64,000 nt of DNA from Chloroflexota bacterium (GTDB lineage: Bacteria; Chloroflexota; Dehalococcoidia; UBA2979): contig VXOS01000053.1 of NCBI GenBank assembly GCA_009839925.1, positions 2,447 through 66,446 on the forward strand, in the 5' to 3' direction. How positions within the stretch are numbered: the first letter of the stretch is position 1; every line of letters begins with the position of its first letter. Below are positions 1 to 61,556 of this stretch, one piece after another. The notes beneath the pieces are model-generated. The model had not been told where the DNA came from. It searched no databases and worked only from the letters and a program-made list of their open reading frames with translations. A program made the position numbers and the translations under genes.

Positions 1-1487
<1,487 letters not shown>

Positions 1488-1495
<8 letters not shown>

Positions 1496-2501
1496 CCAGT
1501 TCGTGCAGCAGGTCGGTCATCAGCCGGGCAAAGTAGCGAACGCGCGGGATGGTGTGCCCGTAGTGCATCCGCGTCGGGCCCAGCACCGCGACGGAGCCGA
1601 CCGCCCCGCCGGGCTCGCCAAAGGCCGAGATGACCATCGTCCAGTCGTGCAACCAGCTCCGCTCGTTCTCATCGCCGATCAACACGCGCGCGCCGGGGTC
1701 GGGGCTGTGCGGCGGCCGCAGCGCACCTCGCAGCTCGTACGCCTCGAGGTGCTCCACCGCGTCGAGCATGCGATCGGTGGTGGAGAACTCCGGCTGCGCC
1801 AGTGCCGCCCGGATGCCTTCGATGAAGAGCTGGGCCGCGCTCGCGCCCTCTGCCACGAGATCGGCGATCTCAAGCGTGAGCCGGCGATCGTCGTCGTCCT
1901 CGAACTGCGGGGCGATCGTGCGGATCCGCTCGGAATCGGAAAGCGAGAGGCGATCGTTGAGGCGCGAGGCGCGGGCAAGCAGCTCCGGCTGACCCTCGTC
2001 CTCCGGCACGGCGACGATCCGTTCCTGGATGCTCCCGTCGTCCAGCACACCCACCAGCAGCGCGGCGCCCGGCCGCAGGTGGACCAGTTGCGCCTGCCGC
2101 AAGTGCGGCACCGGACGCTGCGGACGCGCGACGACGGCAACGTTGCCAACCGCCGCCGCGAGGACGGAGGCCGCAAGCTGCAACCACTCATCGAGACCCG
2201 GCGCTACCTGGTAGAACTGGTGCTCGATCGTCCGGCGCTCGTCGGCGCCGATCGGCTCCTCGGCCATCAGCTCCTCAACGTAGAAGCGATAGCCCGTGTT
2301 GGAGGGGATGCGGCCGGCCGAGGTGTAGGGGTGCGTGATGTACCCCTCCTGCTCGAGGGCGGCCAGCTCGTTGCGCACGGTTGCGGTGGAGACGTCGAGG
2401 TTGTGGCGGTCGACCAGCGCGCGCGAACTCACCGGCGCAGCCGTGCCGATATACTCGTCGACGACGAGATTGAGGATGTCCGCCCGGCGCTGAGTAAGCA
2501 C
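1488..2501 (-). CDS. hrcA: Heat-inducible transcription repressor HrcA
   Basis: HrcA-like winged-helix N-terminus (LTQRRADILNLVVDEYIGTAAPVSSRALV) and full-length similarity. Preferred start is GTG (complement of 2499-2501), preceded by GGAGGG. The ATG at 2543 in the ORF track would be translated from the CIRCE operator itself and is rejected. Confidence 0.85.
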
Positions 2502-2530
2502 GGGCCCTCCATCCCGACTAACCCCACGGA

Positions 2531-2557
2531 TTAGCACTCTCATAGGGAGAGTGCTAA
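2531..2557. promoter_or_regulatory. CIRCE operator (HrcA binding site), perfect match TTAGCACTC-N9-GAGTGCTAA
   Basis: Sequence ttagcactctcatagggagagtgctaa read directly. Perfect 9-bp inverted repeat with a 9-nt spacer, immediately upstream of hrcA-grpE-dnaK. Confidence 0.92.
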
Positions 2558-2619
2558 CACACTGGATTCTAGCGGCCAGACGCCCGACTGGTCAACGCTC
2601 GGACGGGCCCGGAGAGCGC

Positions 2620-3192
2620 ATGGACCGAGATCCGGACCCCCAGGCCGCCGCCTCGCCCGCCGCCGACGATCCCGTTCGCGCGGACGAGGCCCGCGACGCC
2701 TTTTCCGAGCTCTATGAGGCGCACGCCGGCCGCGTCTACCGCTACCTCCTGTCCCGCACGAGCAGCGTCAGCGACGCCGAGGAACTGACCTCGCGCACCT
2801 TCACCAACGCCTTCGCCAGCCTCGGCAGCTACCGCGGGCGCGGCAAGTTCGAGTCCTGGCTGATGACCATCGCGCACAACCTGCTGGCCAACTGGTACCG
2901 CGACCGCGGCCGCAGGCCGCAGGCAGCCCCGCTCGACGAGGCGCTCGCCGTCCCCTCGGACGCGCCGGGACCGGAGTCGGCGCTTGAGGCGCTCGAGGAC
3001 ACACAGCGCGTCCGCGACGCGGCGGCGGCGCTCGCGCCCGACCGCCAGCGCCTGATCACGCTCAAGTACGTCGATGGCCTGACGAACGCCGAGATCGGCC
3101 GCATCCTCGGCCGCAGCGAGGGCGCCGTGAAGGCCCTTCACCACCGCACACTGCGCCAGCTCGCCGCGGCGCTCGCAGCCGACTCGGAGTAG
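2620..3192 (+). CDS. ECF-type RNA polymerase sigma factor (sigma-70 regions 2 and 4)
   Basis: Region 2-like YRYLLSRTSSVSDAEELTSRTF and region 4 HTH DGLTNAEIGRILGRSEGAVKALHHRTLRQL. ATG at 2620 is preceded by GGAGAG. Divergent from hrcA. Confidence 0.7.
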   Translation: MDRDPDPQAAASPAADDPVRADEARDAFSELYEAHAGRVYRYLLSRTSSVSDAEELTSRTFTNAFASLGSYRGRGKFESWLMTIAHNLLANWYRDRGRRPQAAPLDEALAVPSDAPGPESALEALEDTQRVRDAAAALAPDRQRLITLKYVDGLTNAEIGRILGRSEGAVKALHHRTLRQLAAALAADSE

Positions 3193-3280
3193 GCGCACAG
3201 CCCTCCTCCGGGCGGCAGGGTGTGGCGGCAGCCGCGCCCGCTCGCTACGATCGCGAAACCCCGGAAGGGCTGCGCCGATC

Positions 3281-3928
3281 ATGGACGTCAACTGGCTCGG
3301 ACACGCCTGCGTGCGGCTGCGCACGCGCCAGGCGGCCGTGGTGATGGACCCGGCGAGCAGGGACGCCGGCTTCGACATGGGCCGGCCCGGCGCCGATATC
3401 GTCACCATCAGCCGCCACCACCCGCACCACTCGCACGCTACCGGCGTGCGCGGCCAGCCAATCATCATCGACGGCCCCGGCGAGTACGAGATCGAGGGCG
3501 TCCAGCTCTTCGGTCTGCCCAGTCCGTTGCCTCGCGACGGCGGGGACGCGCCGAGCGAGCGCAACACCGCCTACGTCGTCGAGGCGGAGGGTCTGCACGT
3601 CGCCCACCTCGGCAGCGGCTGCACGCCGCCGCGCGAGGACGAGGCCGGGCTGTTCAGCAACATCGACATCCTGATCGTCCCGATCGGCGGGGATGAGTCG
3701 GTCGCGCCGGAGCGGGCCGCCCGGACCGTGCGCGATCTTGAGCCGACGATCGTGATCCCCGTCGGCTACGACGGGCCCGCGGCCGTGGGCGAGCAGCCTG
3801 CCGCGCTGCGCGCCTTCCTCGACGCCACCGGCCTCAGCGGCGGCGAGCCACTGGCGCGGCTCAGCATCCGCCCGCGCGGGCTCGGCGAGGAGCAGCGCGT
3901 CGTGCTGCTGGAAGCCTCGCGCCGCTAG
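3281..3928 (+). CDS. Metal-dependent hydrolase, MBL fold (UPF0173-like)
   Basis: MDVNWLGHACVRL start and a His-rich HHPHHSH metal-binding motif typical of beta-lactamase-fold hydrolases. Confidence 0.55.
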   Translation: MDVNWLGHACVRLRTRQAAVVMDPASRDAGFDMGRPGADIVTISRHHPHHSHATGVRGQPIIIDGPGEYEIEGVQLFGLPSPLPRDGGDAPSERNTAYVVEAEGLHVAHLGSGCTPPREDEAGLFSNIDILIVPIGGDESVAPERAARTVRDLEPTIVIPVGYDGPAAVGEQPAALRAFLDATGLSGGEPLARLSIRPRGLGEEQRVVLLEASRR

Positions 3929-3949
3929 CGATCTTCCGAGGCGGAATCG

Positions 3950-5110
3950 TCAGTCCGGCAGGTAGAGCAGCGGGTTGCGGCGCACGCCGTTGACCTTGAG
4001 TTCGAAGTGCAGGTGCGGGCCGCTCGTGCGCCCGGTCAGGCCGGCATGGCCGAGGACAGTCCCCGCTTCGACCGCGTCCCCGTGCTTCACCGCAAAGTTG
4101 CGCAGATGCGCGTAGAGCGTCGTGAACCCGCCCCCGTGCGCGACCTCGACGTACAGCCCGTAGGAGCAGCATGCGGCGCCACCCACGAAGACCACCGTTC
4201 CGGCGGCCGACGCCCTGATCGGCGTGCCCACCGGTGCGCTGATGTCGATCCCCAGCGGGTGGCTGGGACCGAAGTACGAAGTGATCACGTTTCTGGTGGG
4301 CCAGCTGAAGTTGTAGCGCCACTTCGCTGCCGCGATCAGGCCGGGAGTTGGCTGCGAGGGCTGCGCGAGGCGGCCATTCGGCACGAGAATCGTCGTACCC
4401 GCGACGATGCCGCCATCCCTCCCGAGCTCGTTCGCCTCGATGATATCGACGACCTTGGCGTCGTACTCCTCCGCGATCTCGAGCAGTGTCTCGCCGTAGC
4501 GCACGCCGTGGAGGATCCCCGGCCTGCTCGGCATCTGCAGCTCCGCCCCGACCCGCAGGAAGTCCGCGTCGGTAATGACGTCGATGTTGTTCCAGAGGAT
4601 GTAGTAGCCGGCGAGGTCGAAGCGTTCGGCGAGGCCGCTGACCGTGTCACCCGGCTGCACCTTGTAGCGGTACAGCAGTGGCTGCCGGACGAGTTCGCCT
4701 TCGTCGGCGAGGGGAGGTGCGACCGGCGGGCTGGCCACGTCGCTCGTACTCGCTGCATCGGCCGCCCAGGCGCCATCGATCATCGGATCCGCCCGCCCGA
4801 CAAACCCCCAGCGTGTTGGCGGGGTCTCCGGCCGCGGCGGGATCGGCCGCGGAACGGCCGCCGGCAGCGCGGCAGGCCGCGCCCAGACGGCCACGCCCGC
4901 AAGGCCCGGCAGCGAGATCTGCGAGGCCCTCAACGCCGGCCCTGGCCGGGCTGGACTCGCGGCTCCCGGGAAGAACCCCGCGATCAGGACGCCGGCCAGG
5001 ACGAGCGCGACGACCACGGCGCTCGGCACGGGCAGCGCAGCCGCAATCCGCGAATCACCATCGCCGCCGATCCGCGGGCGCTGCTGCAGCCGCAACTCGC
5101 GCCCGTTCAC
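3950..5110 (-). CDS. Membrane-anchored LysM-domain M23 family metallopeptidase
   Basis: N-terminal TM helix, Pro-rich linker, two LysM-like repeats (YKVQPGDTVSGLAERF; HGVRYGETLLEIAEEYD) and a C-terminal M23 domain (HPLGIDISAPVGTPI...GPHLHFEL). Confidence 0.8.
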   Translation of the reverse strand: MNGRELRLQQRPRIGGDGDSRIAAALPVPSAVVVALVLAGVLIAGFFPGAASPARPGPALRASQISLPGLAGVAVWARPAALPAAVPRPIPPRPETPPTRWGFVGRADPMIDGAWAADAASTSDVASPPVAPPLADEGELVRQPLLYRYKVQPGDTVSGLAERFDLAGYYILWNNIDVITDADFLRVGAELQMPSRPGILHGVRYGETLLEIAEEYDAKVVDIIEANELGRDGGIVAGTTILVPNGRLAQPSQPTPGLIAAAKWRYNFSWPTRNVITSYFGPSHPLGIDISAPVGTPIRASAAGTVVFVGGAACCSYGLYVEVAHGGGFTTLYAHLRNFAVKHGDAVEAGTVLGHAGLTGRTSGPHLHFELKVNGVRRNPLLYLPD

Positions 5111-5302
5111 CCGGCGCGGGAGGACGGGTCCGATACTGGTGATGCACCCCTCCTCCGGTTAGACGCTGTGGCGCGAAGACGACGCTTTCAACCCTTCGGC
5201 CAACGATACACGCGTGGGCTCCGGACTGGATGTTCGTCACGCCGGCAGCTGTCGCCAGCCGCCACGCGGCAGCGACACCCTGGTGCGAGGGCGACCGATT
5301 CG

Positions 5303-6613
5303 TCAGGGCAGGTAGACCAGCGGGTTGCGGCGCACGCCGTTCAGCTCGATCTCGAAGTGCAGGTGCGGGCCCGTGGTGCGCCCCGTCAGCCCGGCGAAGC
5401 CGAGCACGGTGCCCGCCGTGATCTCGTCGCCGCTCGCCACCGCGAAGCTCGCGAGGTGGGCGTAGAGCGTCGTGAATCCGCCGTCGTGCTGGACCTCGAC
5501 ATAGAGGCCGTATGAGCAGCAGCGCGTGCCTCCCACGAAAATCACCGTGCCGTCCGCCGCCGCCTTGATTGGCGTGCCCACCGGCGCCCTGATATCGATC
5601 CCCAGCGGGTGGCTGGGACCGAAGTACGAAGTGATGATGTCCCTGGTGGGCCAGATGAAGTTGAACTCCGAACTCGTCTGCGGCGACACGGCAACCACGC
5701 GCGACGGCGCCGGTGTCGAGGCGGCAGGCGGGCGGACCACGGCAGCAGGCCTCGTGACGATCCGCCCACCCGGCACGAGAATCGTCGTGTCCGCGAAAAT
5801 GCTGCCCTCCCGGTCCAGCCTGTTCACCTCGATGATGTCGACGATGCTGGCGTCGTAGCGCTCGGCGATCTCCAGCAACGTCTCGCCGTAGCGGACGCCG
5901 TGGAGGATGCCGCCCACGCTCGGGACCTGGATCTCCTCGCCCACGCTGAGGAAATCCGCGTCCGGGATGATGTCGATGTTGTTCCAGAGGATGTAGTTGG
6001 CCGTGATGCCGAAGCGCTCGGCGATCCCGGTCACGGTATCGCCCTCCTGCACCTCGTAGCGGAAGAACAGCGGGCGAGGTTGTGTCTCGCGTTCCTGGAG
6101 TTCCGTCGGGGTCGGCGCAGCCACGGCTGCCCGGATCGCCGTCCTCGCGAGGTCGACCTCGGAGGCGGATTCGGACTGATCCGCTGACGCAGCCGCCGCA
6201 GGCCGACCCGTCTCGGCCGAGCCCGGGTATGTGAGCAGCGAGTTGACGAGCGGCGGCTCAATGGGCTCCGGGGCGGACACCGCAGGCGCCGCCGGCTGCT
6301 GCCAACTCGTCGCGCCCGCCATACCCGGCAATGAGATCTGCGAGGTCCTCAGTCCGGGGTTCGGCTGCGTGGAACTCACCGTCACCGGGAAGAACCCGGC
6401 GATCACGACCAGGACCAGCACCAGGCCGACGAACGCCGCATAGATCGCCGGTGGCGCCACCGGTAGCCATGAGAGCCGGGCGGCGGCGATCTGCCGGCGC
6501 TGCGACAAGCGAACCTCACGCCCCGGCTTCGGGCGCGGTCGGGGAAGCACGGGGCCGATACTGCTGATGCGCGCCTCCTCCGGCCGGAGGCGACCACCCC
6601 CAGGGCCGCGCAA
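5303..6613 (-). CDS. Membrane-anchored LysM-domain M23 family metallopeptidase, tandem paralog of 3950-5110
   Basis: Same architecture and high similarity to the neighbour (YEVQEGDTVTGIAERF; HGVRYGETLLEIAERYD; HPLGIDIRAPVGTPI...GPHLHFEI). Confidence 0.8.
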   Translation of the reverse strand: MRGPGGGRLRPEEARISSIGPVLPRPRPKPGREVRLSQRRQIAAARLSWLPVAPPAIYAAFVGLVLVLVVIAGFFPVTVSSTQPNPGLRTSQISLPGMAGATSWQQPAAPAVSAPEPIEPPLVNSLLTYPGSAETGRPAAAASADQSESASEVDLARTAIRAAVAAPTPTELQERETQPRPLFFRYEVQEGDTVTGIAERFGITANYILWNNIDIIPDADFLSVGEEIQVPSVGGILHGVRYGETLLEIAERYDASIVDIIEVNRLDREGSIFADTTILVPGGRIVTRPAAVVRPPAASTPAPSRVVAVSPQTSSEFNFIWPTRDIITSYFGPSHPLGIDIRAPVGTPIKAAADGTVIFVGGTRCCSYGLYVEVQHDGGFTTLYAHLASFAVASGDEITAGTVLGFAGLTGRTTGPHLHFEIELNGVRRNPLVYLP

Positions 6614-6735
6614 ATCAACCGTCCAGGTAAGCGATCTACCCGACGGGGAAACAGGATTTTAGCACGAGGCCCGGTGGCCGGCCGCCGCGCGGCGGCGTGG
6701 AGGAGATCGCGGGCGTGCCACTCGGCCTTGCGCCG

Positions 6736-8250
<1,515 letters not shown>

Positions 8251-23610: not shown

Positions 23611-23705
23611 CGCCTGCCCCCTGTCCGCGCCGCGCGCCCGCAACGACTGCGCCCCGCCTGTCGGGGCGGGGCGCAAGTGTAGCGACTCAGTTCTGGGCCT
23701 CGCGG

Positions 23706-24050
23706 CTACCAGCGGCGACCGCCGCCTCCGCCTCCACCGCGGCTACCGCCGTCGCGGCCTCCGCCACCTCGGCCTCCGCCGCCACCGTCGCGACCTCGAC
23801 CGCCGCCCGAGCCGCCGCGGCCTCCGCCGTCGCGACCACGGCCGCCGCCGCCACGGCCTCCACGACCGCCGCGACCCTCGCCGCCGCGGTTGCCACCACG
23901 GCCTCCGCCGTCGCGACCACGGCCGCCGCCCGGGCCGCCGCGGCCTCCGCCGCCGCCACCACCACGGCCGCGACCGCCGGCGAAGGCGGGCTCGCGCTCC
24001 GGCTCGTCGGCGCCGTCGGCGAGGCCGACGCGCTCGCTGCCGTCCTCACC
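23706..24050. repeat. Periodic GC-rich coding repeats (ggcctccgccgtcgcgaccacggccgccgcc recurs) encoding the PNPase GR-rich tail
   Basis: A repeated 31-nt block at about 23818 and about 23900, plus shorter ccgccgcc periodicities. These are coding on the minus strand, not a CRISPR array. Confidence 0.6.
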
Positions 24051-53739: not shown

Positions 53740-54692
53740 TGACGGCGACCGCGCGCACCAGCGAGGGTCGCCGCGCCCAGCCGGCGATCGCCGACTCCGT
53801 GCTCGACCTGATCGGCGTGACGCCGCTCGTGCGGTTGCACCGCGTCGTGCCCGAGGGCTGCGCCGAGATTCTTGGCAAGCTCGAGTCGCGCAACCCGGCC
53901 GGCTCCGTGAAGGATCGCATCGCGCTGAGCATGATCGAGGATGCCGAGCGCGACGGCCTGATCGCGCCGGGCGACACGATGGTCGAGCCGACCTCCGGCA
54001 ACACCGGCATCGGCCTCGCCATGGTCTGCGCGCGCAAGGGCTACCGGCTGATCCTGACGATGCCCGAGGACATGAGCGTCGAGCGGCGGCGCCTGCTCGA
54101 GCGTTTCGGCGCGGAGTTGCGGCTTACCCCGGCGATCGAGGGCATGACGGGAGCGGTCTACGCCGCCCGGCAGCTGTCCGAGGAGCACGGCTACTTCATG
54201 CCGCAGCAGTTCGATAACCTCGCCAACCCGCGCGTCCACCGCGAGACGACGGGCCCCGAGATCATCGAGGCCACCGGCGGCGCGCTCGACGCGTTCGTCG
54301 CGGGCGTCGGCACCGGCGGCTCGATCACCGGCGTCGGCGAGGTGCTGCGCGAGGCCGTCGCCGACGTGCGCATCGTCGCAGTCGAGCCGTTGCGCTCGCC
54401 GGTGCTCCAGGGCGGACGCGCCGGGCTGCACGGCATCCAGGGCATCGGCGCCTCGTTCGTGCCGGGCGTGCTCAACCGCGAGATCTATGACGAGGTGATC
54501 AGCGTGCGCGACGAGGATGCCTACGCGATGACGGAGCGGCTGACCCGCGAGGAAGGTCTGCTCGTCGGGATCTCGGCCGGCAGTAACGTCTGGGCCTCGA
54601 TCGAGGTCGGCAAGCGGCTCGGGCCGGACTGTCGCGTGGTGACGATGCTCTGTGACACCGGCGAGCGCTACCTGAGCGTGGCGCTCTCGTGA
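53739..54692 (+). CDS. cysK: Cysteine synthase A (O-acetylserine sulfhydrylase)
   Basis: PLP-lysine motif NPAGSVKDRIAL, then TSGNTGIGLA and the GVGTGGSITG loop. Start overlaps the Rrf2 stop. Confidence 0.85.
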   Translation: MTATARTSEGRRAQPAIADSVLDLIGVTPLVRLHRVVPEGCAEILGKLESRNPAGSVKDRIALSMIEDAERDGLIAPGDTMVEPTSGNTGIGLAMVCARKGYRLILTMPEDMSVERRRLLERFGAELRLTPAIEGMTGAVYAARQLSEEHGYFMPQQFDNLANPRVHRETTGPEIIEATGGALDAFVAGVGTGGSITGVGEVLREAVADVRIVAVEPLRSPVLQGGRAGLHGIQGIGASFVPGVLNREIYDEVISVRDEDAYAMTERLTREEGLLVGISAGSNVWASIEVGKRLGPDCRVVTMLCDTGERYLSVALS

Positions 54693-56238: not shown

Positions 56239-57207
56239 GTGAGTGAGGCGGCAGCGCGGCAGACCGGCCGGACACCGGCCGGCAGCGTGCTCGACCGCAT
56301 CGGCGGGACGCCGCTGGTCGACATCTCCGTGCTGTCGCCCAACCCGGACGTCAGCATCTACGCCAAGCTCGAGGGCGAGAACCCGACGGGCTCCGTCAAG
56401 GACCGCATCGCCTGGTGGATGGTCTCCGCTGCCGAGCAGGACGGCCGCCTCGAGCCGGGCCAGACGATCCTCGAGCCGACCTCCGGGAACACCGGCATCT
56501 CCCTCGCCATGATCGGCCGCCTGCGCGGCTACCCCGTGAAGGTGGTGATGCCGGACGCCGTCACCCGCGAGCGCGTCGAGCTGCTGGAGAGCTTCGGCGC
56601 GGAGATCCTCTACTCGCCCGGCGACCTCGGCACGAACGGATCGGTGCGTGAGGCGGAGCGCATCCACGCCGAGCACCCCGAGTGGTTCATGCCCTTCCAG
56701 TACGAGAACGAGGACAACCCGCGCGCCCACTACGAGAGCACCGCCCCCGAGATCATCGAGGACCTGCCGGGCACCGATGTCTTCGTCGCCGGCCTCGGCA
56801 CGGGCGGGACGCTGACCGGCGTCGGTCGGCGGCTCAAGGAGCACAACCCGGCGGTGCGCATCGTCGCCGCCGCCCCGCACCCGGGCGACCTGGTGCAGGG
56901 CCTGCGCAGCCTCGAGGAGGGCTACATCCCGCCCGTGCTCGACGAGTCCGTGCTCGACGGCCGGATCGTCGTCGACTCGGCGACCTCGTTCCGGCTGACG
57001 CGTGAGCTGACGGAGCGCACCGGCATCTTCGCCGGCGTCTCCAGTGGAGCGGCGGTGCGCGCCGCGCAGCGCGCGGCGGAGCGGATGCGCAGCGGGAAGG
57101 TGGTCTGCCTGCTGGCGGACAGCGGCTGGAAGTACCTGTCCTCTGGCCTCTGGACGCAGGACTACGACGAGATCGAGGAGGACGTAAACACGACGCTCTG
57201 GTGGTAG
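56239..57207 (+). CDS. cysM: CysO-thiocarboxylate-dependent cysteine synthase CysM (O-phosphoserine sulfhydrylase type)
   Basis: PLP motif NPTGSVKDRIAWWM and the fold II family. Gene order cysO-cysM with Mec+ nearby mirrors M. tuberculosis mec-cysO-cysM. Confidence 0.8.
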   Translation: MSEAAARQTGRTPAGSVLDRIGGTPLVDISVLSPNPDVSIYAKLEGENPTGSVKDRIAWWMVSAAEQDGRLEPGQTILEPTSGNTGISLAMIGRLRGYPVKVVMPDAVTRERVELLESFGAEILYSPGDLGTNGSVREAERIHAEHPEWFMPFQYENEDNPRAHYESTAPEIIEDLPGTDVFVAGLGTGGTLTGVGRRLKEHNPAVRIVAAAPHPGDLVQGLRSLEEGYIPPVLDESVLDGRIVVDSATSFRLTRELTERTGIFAGVSSGAAVRAAQRAAERMRSGKVVCLLADSGWKYLSSGLWTQDYDEIEEDVNTTLWW

Positions 57208-58942: not shown

Positions 58943-59815
58943 ATGCCTTCCGAAGCGCCTGTGCAGCCACCCCCGCCGATCAAGATCGGCGGACACTGCT
59001 TCGAGTGGGGGCAGCGCAGCTACGTGATGGGCATCGTGAACGCCACGCCGGACTCGTTCTCCGGCGACGGCGTGCTCGACCCGGCCGCCGCCGCCGACCG
59101 GGCAGCGCGCATGGTCGAGGACGGCGCGGACCTGATCGATGTTGGGGCGGAGTCCACCCGGCCCGATCACCAGCCCCTCGACGCTGCTGGCGAGTGGGCG
59201 CGCCTCGCGCCCGTGCTGCGCGCGCTGCGCGAGGCAGTCTCCGCGCCGATCAGCATCGACACCGCCAAGGCCTACGTCGCCGAGCGCGCCTTCGACGCGG
59301 GCGCCGACGCGCTCAACGACGTGCACGGCCTGCGCGCCGACCCGGCGCTCGCGTCGCTGCTCGCAGCGCGCGAGCTACCCGCCGTTCTGATGCACAACCA
59401 GCGCGGCCGTCCCCCGGTCGGCGACGTGATCGCCGACGTGCGCGCGGGCCTCGAGGAGTCGCTCGCGATCGCCGAGGCGGCGGGCGTGCGGCGCGAAATG
59501 CTGATCCTCGATCCGGGGTTCGGGTTCGGCATCGGGCCGCAGCAGAGCCTCGAGCTGGTGCGCCGGCTCGGCGAGCTGCGGTGCCTGGGGCGGCCGCTGC
59601 TGCTCGGCAGCTCGCGCAAGTCCGCGATCGGCTGGGCGCTCGGCCGCGAGCAGGAGCCGCCCTCGACGCGCGCCGCCGGGAGCGCCGCGACGGTCGCGCT
59701 CGCCATCGCTGCCGGGGCCGACATCGTGCGCGTCCACGACGTGCGCGAGATGGCCGATGTCGCGCTCGTGACGGACGCGGTCCTGCACGGGCGGCGTCGC
59801 GGGGATCCGGCATGA
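58943..59815 (+). CDS. folP: Dihydropteroate synthase
   Basis: MGIVNATPDSFSGDG and DVGAESTRP motifs; pterin-binding TIM barrel. Confidence 0.85.
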   Translation: MPSEAPVQPPPPIKIGGHCFEWGQRSYVMGIVNATPDSFSGDGVLDPAAAADRAARMVEDGADLIDVGAESTRPDHQPLDAAGEWARLAPVLRALREAVSAPISIDTAKAYVAERAFDAGADALNDVHGLRADPALASLLAARELPAVLMHNQRGRPPVGDVIADVRAGLEESLAIAEAAGVRREMLILDPGFGFGIGPQQSLELVRRLGELRCLGRPLLLGSSRKSAIGWALGREQEPPSTRAAGSAATVALAIAAGADIVRVHDVREMADVALVTDAVLHGRRRGDPA

Positions 59816-60345
59816 CCAGCGGAGCCGAGGAGCGGCGGGTCTACCTCGGCATCGGCGGCAACCTCGGCGACCGCGTCGCCGCGCTGCGCACGGGTCTCGA
59901 ACGGCTCGCCGAGGCGGGCGTGGCCGTCGAGGCGGTCTCCTCGCTCTGGGAGACGGAGCCGTGGGGCGGGCCGGCCTGCGCGGACCCCGCGCCGCCCTAC
60001 GCGAACGCCGCCGCCTGCGTGCGCAGCGCGCTCGAACCCCTCGCACTGCTGCGCCTCTGCAAGCGCATCGAGGTGGCCGCGGGCCGCGATCTGGACGCCC
60101 CACGCAACAGTCCGCGGCCGCTCGACCTCGACCTGCTGCTCGCCGATGACCTGCGCATCGAGAGCGAGGAGTTGCGAATCCCGCACCCCCGGATGCACCA
60201 GCGCGGCTTCGTGCTCGTCCCGCTCGCGGAGATCGCGCCGGACGTGATGCACCCCACGCTGGAGCGCTCGATCGCCGAGCTGCGCGACGCCGTGGGCCTC
60301 GAGGGCGTCGAGCCGCTTGCGCCCGTGGGCTGGGAGTCCGGTTAG
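59812..60345 (+). CDS. folK: 2-amino-4-hydroxy-6-hydroxymethyldihydropteridine pyrophosphokinase
   Basis: RVYLGIGGNLGDR...ETEPWGG...RPLDLDLL HPPK motifs. ATG overlaps the folP stop. Confidence 0.85.
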   Translation: MTSGAEERRVYLGIGGNLGDRVAALRTGLERLAEAGVAVEAVSSLWETEPWGGPACADPAPPYANAAACVRSALEPLALLRLCKRIEVAAGRDLDAPRNSPRPLDLDLLLADDLRIESEELRIPHPRMHQRGFVLVPLAEIAPDVMHPTLERSIAELRDAVGLEGVEPLAPVGWESG

Positions 60346-60373
60346 CTCTCCAGCAGCCGCTCGCGCAGCCGCG
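60344..60373. repeat. 30-nt direct repeat copy A (agctctccagcagccgctcgcgcagccgcg), identical to 60815-60844
   Basis: Exact 30/30 identity found by direct reading. Copy A abuts the folK stop; copy B is the last 9 codons plus stop of the phosphatase gene (…RLRERLLES*). Confidence 0.85.
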
Positions 60374-60399
60374 GGTGACCCGCTGCGCGCCCCCGGCCG

Positions 60400-60756
60400 C
60401 TAGCTGAGGGCGTCGAGCCGCTCGACGAGTTCGCCGACATGGGTGAGGTGATCCTCGACCGTGTCGCGATCGAGCCAGCCTTCGTAGGAGTTGGTGTGGA
60501 GGGCGGCAGCGATGCCGAAGCTGCTGCGCAGCTCACCGTCGCCCGTCTCGTCGACCAGTCGTGTGACTGTCCGGAAGAGATCGCGGTGGCTGTGGTGGGG
60601 CCAGCCGCGGGTCTCGGCGGCGGCCTTGACCATTTGCGCGGCCGCACCCCAACCCTTCTCCGAGGCTTGGCGCAGGTCGTCCTCGGCGAGGTAGCTCCGC
60701 GCCCTCGCAAGGAACTCGTGGCCAGTGTCGCTGTAGGTGCTCCCGTTGCTGGTCAT
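60400..60756 (-). CDS. HEPN-superfamily protein, PaREP1-like
   Basis: MTSNGSTY...LRQASEKGWGAAAQMVKAAAETRGWPHHSHRDLFRTV... resembles the PaREP1 family (QASEK.W.A....KA.AE..G....SH). No nucleotidyltransferase partner is nearby. Confidence 0.5.
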   Translation of the reverse strand: MTSNGSTYSDTGHEFLARARSYLAEDDLRQASEKGWGAAAQMVKAAAETRGWPHHSHRDLFRTVTRLVDETGDGELRSSFGIAAALHTNSYEGWLDRDTVEDHLTHVGELVERLDALS

Positions 60757-60812
60757 GGCCTGATTGTAGCACCGCGCGAGGCGCTGCCATGGCACGAGGG
60801 CGCGCGGCCCCC

Positions 60813-61556
60813 TCAGCTCTCCAGCAGCCGCTCGCGCAGCCGCGCGATCAGGGGCTCGTCGACGCCGCCGAGGGCGAGCAGCGCCTCGGTCGAGTCGTAG
60901 CGCTCGTCGATGCCGCGCAGCAGCGACTGCATGGTGTCGGGCGTGGCGTCCAGCATCTCGCGTGTGAGCTCGGTGCCCCACGCCTTGCCACGCTCCGCGA
61001 TCTGTTCGTCGCTGAGGTCGCGCCACATCGTCAGGTACTCGCGGGTCAGCGCGTAGTCCTCGACGATCGTCTCGTCCGGCACGCCGAGCAGGCGCAGCAG
61101 CAGCGCCGCAGTGACGCCCGTGCGGTCCTTGCCGCCTTCGCAGTTGAAGGCGACGGCCTTGCGTTCGTCGGCCTCGGCGATCGCGGCGAAGACCGCGCCG
61201 ATCGCCGCCACCGCTTGCTCGACGCCTTGCAGGTAGTCGAGGCCGGGCCCCGAGGGGTCGCGCATCGTGACGCGCCCGTAGGGCACGTGGCGGTGCTCGA
61301 CGCCGTGCTCGTGCAGCGAGGAGATGCCGTGCCGCTCCAGTTCCTCGTTGGTCCGCAGGTCGAGGACCAGCGCCAGGTCAAGTCCGAGCAGGCGCTGCAC
61401 GTCGGCGCGCGTCGTCTGGGAGAGCGTGCTGGTGCGGAACACGGTGCGCCAGCGCACGCGGCGGCCCTCGCGCGTCTCGTAGCCGCCGAGGTCCCGGAAG
61501 TTGCTCACGCGCTCGAACGGGAGGCGACGCTCGAAGGTCTCCGTCGGGTCGGTCAT
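60813..61556 (-). CDS. Protein tyrosine/serine phosphatase (Y_phosphatase3-like, CX5R)
   Basis: Active-site CEGGKDRTG and a general acid region upstream. Start MTDPTETF. Confidence 0.7.
   Translation of the reverse strand: MTDPTETFERRLPFERVSNFRDLGGYETREGRRVRWRTVFRTSTLSQTTRADVQRLLGLDLALVLDLRTNEELERHGISSLHEHGVEHRHVPYGRVTMRDPSGPGLDYLQGVEQAVAAIGAVFAAIAEADERKAVAFNCEGGKDRTGVTAALLLRLLGVPDETIVEDYALTREYLTMWRDLSDEQIAERGKAWGTELTREMLDATPDTMQSLLRGIDERYDSTEALLALGGVDEPLIARLRERLLES
60815..60844. repeat. 30-nt direct repeat copy B (3' end of the phosphatase gene)
   Basis: See copy A. The two copies bracket a 441-bp segment holding only the HEPN/PaREP1-like gene. Confidence 0.85.

Follow-up and report, generated by a model that had tools for sequence, protein, structure and literature searches.

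A PaREP1-family gene bracketed by a duplicated phosphatase gene end in Chloroflexota: probably one old insertion with later loss, tandem gain and gene conversion

Some integrative elements duplicate the 3' end of the gene they enter (as at the att sites of tRNA and protein genes), and integrase-less remnants or satellites of such elements occur as cargo between repeated partial att sites in genomic islands. In a 64,000-nucleotide stretch of a Chloroflexota bacterium (GenBank assembly GCA_009839925.1, contig VXOS01000053.1, positions 2,447 to 66,446), which we refer to as the window and number from its first letter, we analyzed a short insert between folK and a phosphatase gene that carries a single PaREP1-family gene and is bracketed by a perfect 30-nt direct repeat of the phosphatase 3' end. 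The PaREP1 family was originally described as archaeal (crenarchaeal), repetitive, tandemly arrayed and tied to variable regions (PMC3710099, PMC3558965), and in Pyrobaculum PaREP1 is associated with strain-variable regions (PMC3558965). Parep1/8 proteins have been placed in the HEPN-T clade, where the His of the Rx4-6H motif, a motif that sits at the end of core helix 3, is kept and its Arg is lost (Anantharaman et al. 2013, PMC3710099). HEPN proteins are also known as integron cassette cargo ("integron-associated HEPN", PDB 3jrt, cited in PMC3710099).

The insert resembles the integrase-less remnants of gene-end elements and, superficially, integron cassettes, but neither the recombinase nor the attC site that define these systems was found in the locus neighbourhoods. 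We favour, with moderate confidence, a history that began with one old insertion, after which recombination at the repeats led to precise loss, tandem gain and gene conversion. The PaREP1 gene is a strain-variable accessory gene in sponge-type Chloroflexota, and the locus represents accessory-gene turnover, not a new kind of system. Its value is as an unusually clean record of a small accessory gene entering a packed bacterial chromosome with its neighbours undamaged.

The repeat pair and the gene between its copies

The 30-mer AGCTCTCCAGCAGCCGCTCGCGCAGCCGCG occurs at 60344-60373 (copy A, designated R_A) and at 60815-60844 (copy B, R_B), and the two copies are identical at 30/30 positions. No third copy was present in the 64-kb window even with three mismatches permitted, and a scan of the whole window found the 30-mer to be the sole perfect non-paralogous direct repeat of at least 20 nt within 5 kb. 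With mismatches allowed, the similarity of R_A and R_B reaches 18-23 nt deeper into the folK end (53 nt at 81% identity in the window, 46 nt at 80% in the related locus L001), and since it does so the founding duplication may originally have been ~48 nt in size, including the folK end. The ~72% G+C content and strong codon bias of the genome inflate short repeats and would favour a chance repeat, or an artefact of assembly; but such an origin is effectively refuted, as none of 100 dinucleotide-preserving shuffles yielded two matches to the 30-mer, none of the 332 control intervals in our survey of PaREP1 loci (described below) had an exact flanking repeat of 15 nt or more, and the same architecture was found in six independent assemblies from different samples.

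The left flank is folK (HPPK; 59812-60345, plus strand; Pfam PF01288, E = 1.7e-33), which stands in an order with folP that is syntenic across all relatives. Its TAG stop (60343-60345, plus strand) has a 2-nt overlap with R_A, which starts one base inside the stop. Convergent with folK is the right flank, a Y_phosphatase3 gene (60813-61556, minus strand; Pfam PF13350, E = 3.8e-55) whose CX5R motif reads C-EGGKD-R. R_B, on the minus strand, is the functional end of this gene, comprising its last 9 codons (RLRERLLES) and the first base of its TGA stop, and the remainder of the stop is completed by the cassette edge (its last 2 nt, TC). The C-terminal motif LIxRLRERLLE was kept in 17 orthologues of the phosphatase. 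Read on the minus strand, R_A gives RLRERLLES and then TAA; it lies at the ancestral position abutting folK, as a non-coding relic of the phosphatase 3' end.

The 441 nt separating R_A and R_B hold one credible gene only, a PaREP1-family gene of 118 codons plus a TAG stop (60400-60756, minus strand; Pfam PF05942). It is accompanied on the same strand by a 3' untranslated segment (60374-60399), which by multiple alignment is homologous in every locus that is filled, i.e., that holds a cassette, and by a 5' segment (60757-60814) which, from a promoter scan and its conservation, carries the gene's own promoter. An earlier note on this DNA had described the perfect repeat, copy B as the phosphatase's last nine codons with their stop context, copy A as abutting the folK stop and encoding the same peptide end in frame, and a lone minus-strand PaREP1/HEPN-like ORF (open reading frame) in the 441 bp with no minimal nucleotidyltransferase (MNT) partner; our analysis bore out this description in each part, the ORF matching its Pfam family at E = 2.1e-21, its fold being placed with HEPN by AlphaFold2 and Foldseek, and an MNT gene being absent from the window and from related loci.

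A 17-mer, GAGGGCGTCGAGCCGCT, is interleaved with the 30-mer pair. Its copy in folK (60301-60317) is identical to 60406-60422, which is antisense of the last PaREP1 codons (ERLDAL), and the 17-mer was present in folK of filled and empty relatives and in every cassette. It may be a microhomology trace of the founding event.

Empty, single and double sites and the order of events

Orthologous loci (given here with L numbers) were obtained from exact-protein look-ups and from one GTDB genome scan with the phosphatase profile, which gave one true orthologue (L003) among the matches listed, the rest being distant family members. The comparison covered 10 lineages, all of them metagenome assemblies. 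Empty sites, which the earlier note had predicted, were found in L083/L084, in L003 (from the metagenome-assembled genome "MAG: Chloroflexi bacterium SB0661_bin_43"), and in L169 and L171. L083 and L084, with flanks 96.6-98.0% identical to the window in nucleotides and a phosphatase of 97% protein identity, would on these sequences be essentially the same species as the window. Both read folK-TAG, one 30-mer and cgatcag..., which is the window minus exactly 471 nt; their empty-site sequence ...gggagtccggtTAGCTCTCCAGCAGCCGCTCGCGCAGCCGCGcgatcagggg... joins the left and right flanks of the window through a single 30-mer. The segment missing from these relatives corresponds to 60374-60844 or, equivalently, 60344-60814 of the window. 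The single repeat copy in L083, L003, L169, and L171 sits exactly at the R_A position, and in the empty loci the folK and phosphatase stops overlap in a palindrome, CTAG or TTAG.

One cassette is present in the window, L001, L002, L168, and L172. L085 has two tandem cassettes (genes at 5800-6156 and 6271-6627) with 471-nt spacing and three R copies, and its folK-proximal gene (P0008) is chimeric: compared with the neighbouring copy, its N-terminal half is 95% identical but its C-terminal half only 57%, and its closest relative is another paralogue lineage (P0034, 71%). In L170 the phosphatase does not adjoin folK. Neither junction (R_A followed by GGTGRCC..., and ...CTC followed by AGC of R_B) shifts by a base between filled loci, and the multiple alignment has the non-coding ends of their cassettes as homologous, such that the cassette has the same two junctions in five species-level lineages besides that of the window (L001, L002, L085, L168, and L172). 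Across 171 fetched loci (1.24 Mb), more than 70 PaREP1 paralogue loci among them, an R-like 30-mer was confined to the folK/phosphatase locus. The earlier note had proposed a genome search for further copies; as none occurs elsewhere in the window or in the 1.24 Mb, we rejected two readings of the 30-mer, a repeat dispersed through the genome and an att site carried by the cassette.

A neighbour-joining tree of the flanks (Trm112 to the phosphatase, plus folK; bootstrap 98-100%) had the topology (L169, L171), L002; (L172, (L001, L168)); ((L085, L003), (window, L083)). The outgroup loci L169 and L171 are empty, and their phosphatases end in R followed by TAG. Because the empty loci L083 and L003 have as their sisters the filled window and the doubly filled L085, respectively, and the outgroup is empty, one gain with two precise losses is the most parsimonious history. 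R_A starts with CTAGCGC, the "ER*" end of the outgroup, in L001, L002, L085, and L168, and the R_B of these four reads "EG" followed by TGA; with an outgroup-type start in four lineages, R_A is best understood as a fossil of the gene end before insertion. R_A also has deletions of 11-13 nt that arose independently in L085, L002, and L172 and are located between R's internal short repeats. Since three lineages have such independent deletions, as a relic without function would, R_A is not under selection, and in most of the lineages it is in decay.

The two R copies nevertheless share lineage-specific bases. At position 4 there is T in both copies in the window and C in both copies in L172, and position 20, a synonymous third position, is A in both L001 copies, whereas in the sister lineage L168 the copies differ there (G in R_A, C in R_B). 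Each of these coincidences has a chance of ~1% under independent mutation, and jointly the three point to an interaction of R_A with R_B, by gene conversion or by unequal exchange. As such conversion would explain the 30/30 identity in the window, a fresh insertion is not required. The earlier note had proposed a cassette insertion with target duplication, by a site-specific or microhomology-mediated event, and implied that it was recent; the duplication and the empty site stood, while a site-specific mechanism found no backing, as neither a recombinase within the 5-6 kb searched around the loci nor a structured att site was detected. The insertion is probably not fresh, since five other lineages have the same junctions and the tree favours an old gain, and conversion between its copies accounts for a perfect repeat better than recency does.

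The history we favour would have proceeded as follows. The inserted unit is a 441-bp accessory cassette of a single gene, in which a PaREP1/HEPN-fold ORF, predicted to be leaderless, stands between a predicted extended -10 promoter of its own and a short 3' tail. The founding insertion would have occurred in the clade ancestor, where the folK and phosphatase stops overlapped (CTAG), and would have duplicated at least 30 nt of the phosphatase end, possibly ~48 nt including the folK end, with the consequence that both flanking genes were left intact. The phosphatase would then have ended in the distal R_B with a new TGA stop from the cassette edge, and the folK-proximal R_A would have become a non-coding relic. 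Later, R_A and R_B would have been substrates for ordinary homologous or slippage recombination, which would excise the cassette with precision and return the locus to its empty state (L083/L084, L003); unequal exchange at R would give rise to a tandem array, with the double cassette of L085 as the expected reciprocal product; and the R copies would occasionally convert each other, giving the 30/30 identity of the window. With its matched empty, single, and double states, this single site would show short repeats steering the fate of a gene through precise loss, tandem gain, and concerted evolution.

Presence and absence of the cassette could instead reflect gene flow, not vertical gain and loss, if the cassette arose once and spread between related strains or species by allelic homologous recombination through imported folK and phosphatase flanks, or, as a variant, by homology-facilitated illegitimate recombination with one anchor. 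Cassette identity between lineages (93-98%) is well above that of the phosphatase (80-83%) and slightly above that of folK and folP, and in several genome pairs the synonymous divergence (dS) of the cassette was 0.09-0.17 vs 0.27-0.46 for the phosphatase and folP, a comparison that involves only ~83 synonymous sites and in which folK is intermediate. Such spread would also fit the polymorphic occupancy inside one species, the chimeric second cassette of L085 (95%/57%), which is the product of recombination among paralogues, and the duplicated segment at L111 (see below), with differences that are mostly synonymous, as expected of a donor-genome copy. Against this, the phosphatase is fast-evolving in all comparisons, empty-empty pairs included, so the contrast may be due to selection and not transfer; sliding-window identity profiles had no clear import tract running from the cassette into the flanks; and allelic recombination would not by itself explain the identical R copies. 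We regard this account as quite improbable.

Four further features of the relatives concern the flanks. The window's folK has six substitutions within 12 nt at 60255-60270 (HPTLER vs HPLLGR or similar in all relatives, among them L083, which is 97% identical), and these bring the local identity between the window and L083 down to ~91%. In L168 an IS481-like element (~4225-5345, with an rve-type transposase at 4262-5245) is inserted exactly at the shared CTAG stop, between folK and R_A, where it has duplicated the target GCTAGC; a second kind of insertion has thus used the palindrome of the overlapping stops. L002 has an ATP-binding cassette (ABC) transporter block (1439-5141; SBP_bac_5 and two permeases) between a small membrane-protein gene and the phosphatase that was not seen in the window or the other relatives. 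In L001 a single nucleotide is missing close to the 3' end of folK (~6419-6470), with the result that the called gene (200 aa) continues across R_A into the 3' end of PaREP1, owing either to a true frameshift or to an error of long-read assembly.

Mobility, other PaREP1 loci, and known systems

We surveyed flanking repeats at 70 PaREP1 loci against the 332 control intervals. Most of the loci (~60/70) were at chance level, and three independent loci stood out: the folK/phosphatase locus (with repeats of 30 nt in the window and 24 nt in L001), L086, and L111. In L086 a PaREP1 paralogue stands alone, with a glycosyltransferase gene on one side and metG on the other, and a perfect 17-nt direct repeat, GCAGGTGGCCCTGCGGG, brackets it at 3914-3930 and 4395-4411 (481-nt spacing); this repeat can form a hairpin and is unique locally. 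In L111 the gene downstream of PaREP1 is a 2Fe-2S (NuoG/FdhA-like) gene, and a 186-nt, 81%-identical duplicate of its 5' end lies on the far side of PaREP1 (638-823 and 1284-1469); the upstream duplicate keeps an open 71-aa frame, and because the differences are mostly synonymous this copy may be donor-derived or functional, not a target duplication. With most of the 70 loci at chance and L086 as the sole clean second case, we rejected flanking duplication as a general hallmark of PaREP1.

Tandem PaREP1 copies were found in L085, L107, L140, and L146. The apparent repeats of L107, L140, L146, and L156-L164 were set aside, as they are neighbouring tandem paralogues and not target duplications. 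In the metagenome loci L107, L140, L146, and L156, PaREP1 paralogues stand in tandem, from two to at least four at a time, and every copy of the low-GC L156 group is extended at its N-terminus by a segment that looks ribbon-helix-helix-like.

Several points weigh against one old insertion followed by loss, tandem gain, and conversion. The 30/30 identity, with the same 30-mer as the single copy of the conspecific, is what would be seen had the cassette inserted very recently and duplicated its target de novo, and the case for gene conversion consists of three single-base coincidences. The low dS of the cassette relative to the flanking genes, again over ~83 synonymous sites and with folK intermediate, could mean a more recent horizontal spread. 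The single copy of L003 is of the "EG" type at position 4, so a simple crossover between R_A and R_B would require a prior conversion there. The perfect 17-nt bracket of L086, set against 0/332 controls, is a hint that insertion may proceed by a mechanism which duplicates its target, and the sample is one of 10 lineages, all from metagenomes.

A rival account is that the cassette is actively mobile, mobilised in trans and inserting repeatedly here and at other gene ends, whether with a long target duplication or through recombination of a cassette-borne R with a chromosomal R (att/attC-like). The perfect repeat of the window would then mark a recent insertion and the filled lineages several independent events. 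Such mobility would account for a 30/30 repeat that matches the conspecific empty site, for the lineage-specific bases found in both copies (window, L172, and L001), for two cassettes in the one site of L085, for a cassette dS below that of the flanks, and for a multicopy family (at least 8 in one 3.2-Mb genome) with lone genes wedged amid housekeeping genes. It would also fit the unique bracket of L086 with its similar geometry (481-nt spacing), and exact flanking repeats of at least 17 nt at three independent PaREP1 loci vs none of 332 control intervals.

The machinery for such movement was not seen. Within 5-6 kb of the six related loci, the extent of the neighbourhoods searched, there was no recombinase, and no integrase or transposase in any locus bar the unrelated IS481-like element of L168. 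Transposon-like ends were discounted, the longest inverted match between the cassette ends being 8 nt, with no terminal inverted repeats, and so was an attC- or dif-like structure, as R and the junctions had no significant secondary structure (folding z of -1.5 to +0.1 vs shuffles) and no Rfam match. We thus found no evidence of a site-specific recombinase or structured att site at this locus. Moreover, an R-like sequence flanks no paralogue, flanking repeats do not exceed chance at ~60 of the 70 PaREP1 loci, and the ER-type fossil R_A in four lineages, together with the identical junctions, argues for a single founding event. On balance we consider active mobility unlikely, though if true the locus would indicate a new mode of gene-end-targeted insertion. 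The broadest form of the idea, that PaREP1 genes are a new class of recombinase-less, trans-mobilised single-gene cassettes which home to gene boundaries, duplicate 17-50 nt of target, leave flanking genes intact, and stack at hot spots, the folK/phosphatase site being one such with insertion and excision ongoing, strikes us as very doubtful.

Compared with gene-end integrative elements, the locus has the 3'-end direct repeat bracketing the insert, a reconstituted target gene, a precise excised state, and tandem stacking with repeats between the units; both the gene-end direct repeat and the precise empty site by which such elements are recognised were found. It differs in that the insert is 441 bp with one 118-aa ORF and no recombinase in the neighbourhoods, the repeat lacks dyad symmetry, the relic copy decays freely, and the evidence here favours one founding event plus homologous recombination. 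The likeness to integron cassettes and to clusters of attC sites lacking integrases (CALINs) lies in ~0.5-kb single-ORF units arrayed in the same orientation with a recurring short element between them. However, the recurring element here copies the coding end of a neighbouring gene and is not a structured attC, no IntI or attI was found within 5-6 kb, and the PaREP1 cassette has its own promoter whereas integron cassettes are usually without one. Unlike insertion sequences and miniature inverted-repeat transposable elements, the cassette has no terminal inverted repeats, and the duplication (at least 30 nt here, 17 nt at L086) is not of a short fixed length.

The PaREP1 protein, its promoter, and unrelated window features

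The 118-aa protein matched the PaREP1 hidden Markov model (PF05942) with 76.4 bits (cutoff 24.4; E = 2.1e-21) over profile positions 7-115 of 115, and a profile of 26 family members searched against PDB matched 2jpu/2q00, the sole solved PaREP1/8 structure (E = 0.006). An AlphaFold2 model built from the 26-member alignment had five helices and a mean confidence (pLDDT) of 95.8, and in a Foldseek search its first-ranked match was 2q00_A (TM-score 0.80, root-mean-square deviation 2.5 A), with further matches to HEPN structures including 2hsb (TM-score 0.87), 1ufb, 3o10 (the sacsin HEPN domain), 1o3u, and 1wol. The five helices and these matches agree with the HEPN architecture, an up-down core of four helices in which an insert separates helices 2 and 3. 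Since the model is confident and its best PDB matches are 2q00 and HEPN proteins, the predicted HEPN fold holds, and the protein is a bona fide PaREP1/HEPN-T member. A second PaREP1 copy in the window was dismissed, as a weak tblastn match at 3422-3610 falls in an unrelated 215-aa ORF.

The signature QASEKGWGAAAQ...GW.H..H...LH.NFYEGW is invariant in the family. H87 (LHTNFYEGW) is invariant at the end of a predicted helix (75-92) that corresponds to core helix 3, and the family alignment has no conserved Arg 4-6 residues upstream of it, so the canonical Rx4-6H motif is absent, with the position of this motif assigned from its place in the model and not from a structure-based active-site alignment. 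R50, H54, and H57 (GW-H-x2-H), which are invariant or nearly so, sit in the loop after helix 2. RNase activity is possible on this model and is not implied by it, because only the His of Rx4-6H is kept and R50/H54/H57 lie in the loop instead. The orphan RNase-type toxin or defence role raised in the earlier note stays conjectural. The protein is predicted most likely to serve a conflict or stress system as a HEPN-type binder of RNA or nucleotides, and it may be a non-canonical RNase that works through the invariant His54, His57, and His87; these three residues and the promoter are concrete features for testing.

The match to the PaREP1 model, the superposition on 2q00, the H87 without its Arg, the multicopy state, the tandem arrays, and the strain-variable setting are all as in the described PaREP1/PaREP8 proteins. 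Unlike those, the window protein is bacterial (Chloroflexota and other sponge or marine metagenome bacteria) and not archaeal, its subfamily is tight with an invariant GW-H-x2-H in the helix-2/insert loop, and the genes of its type are lone and promoter-bearing amid housekeeping genes, not in operons with MNT or restriction endonuclease genes. A homologue search gave 1242 matches, with multiple copies per genome (at least 8 distinct copies on one 3.22-Mb contig). Other near homologues were named as Acidimicrobiia or "bacterium" metagenome-assembled genomes, and NCBI already names such bacterial proteins "PaREP1 family protein"; an exact look-up found no identical database record of the window protein. 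The PaREP1 branch of HEPN, described as archaeal, is thus an expanded and strain-variable family in sponge and marine Chloroflexota and in other bacteria.

Like HEPN-MNT type II/VII toxin-antitoxin systems, the locus has a small, strain-variable, accessory HEPN-fold protein, but it is not a HEPN-MNT pair: no MNT or other small partner gene was adjacent in 8 loci (window, L001, L002, L085, L168, L172, L086, and L087), where the neighbours are folK, the phosphatase, Trm112, and other housekeeping genes, and Rx4-6H is absent. An association of the gene with phage or defence was dropped, as PADLOC-DB 2.0 gave 0 matching families at E up to 1, PHROG no match (best E = 0.21), and IMG/VR contigs no PaREP1 homologue.

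The predicted promoter comprises a -35 box ATGGCA (60785-60790), a 16-nt spacer, and a TG-extended -10 box TACAAT (60763-60768); the promoter scan observed 1 site vs 0.0 expected, and no terminator-like sites were found in the promoter/terminator scan. A TACAAT/TAGAAT box at the same distance from the gene was kept in L001, L002, L085, L168, and L172 and in the paralogues L086 and L087. Since the -10 box ends 6 nt ahead of the ATG, the gene would be independently transcribed as a leaderless mRNA.

Elsewhere in the window there were repeats unrelated to the cassette. Positions 23689-23988 are in-frame tandem repeats within a long ORF (14 overlapping copies with periods of 9-21 nt), and 8044-8169 is a 9-nt periodic run of GCGGCCCTC in a long ORF, both being low-complexity coding sequence. 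Two pairs of diverged paralogous segments, 74-80% identical and 1.4-2.5 kb apart, were also seen, one at 3957-4665 and 5307-6057, and the other at 53876-54270 and 56364-56761 in PALP/cysteine-synthase-like genes of a ThiS/ThiF/JAB sulfur-carrier cluster upstream of folP.

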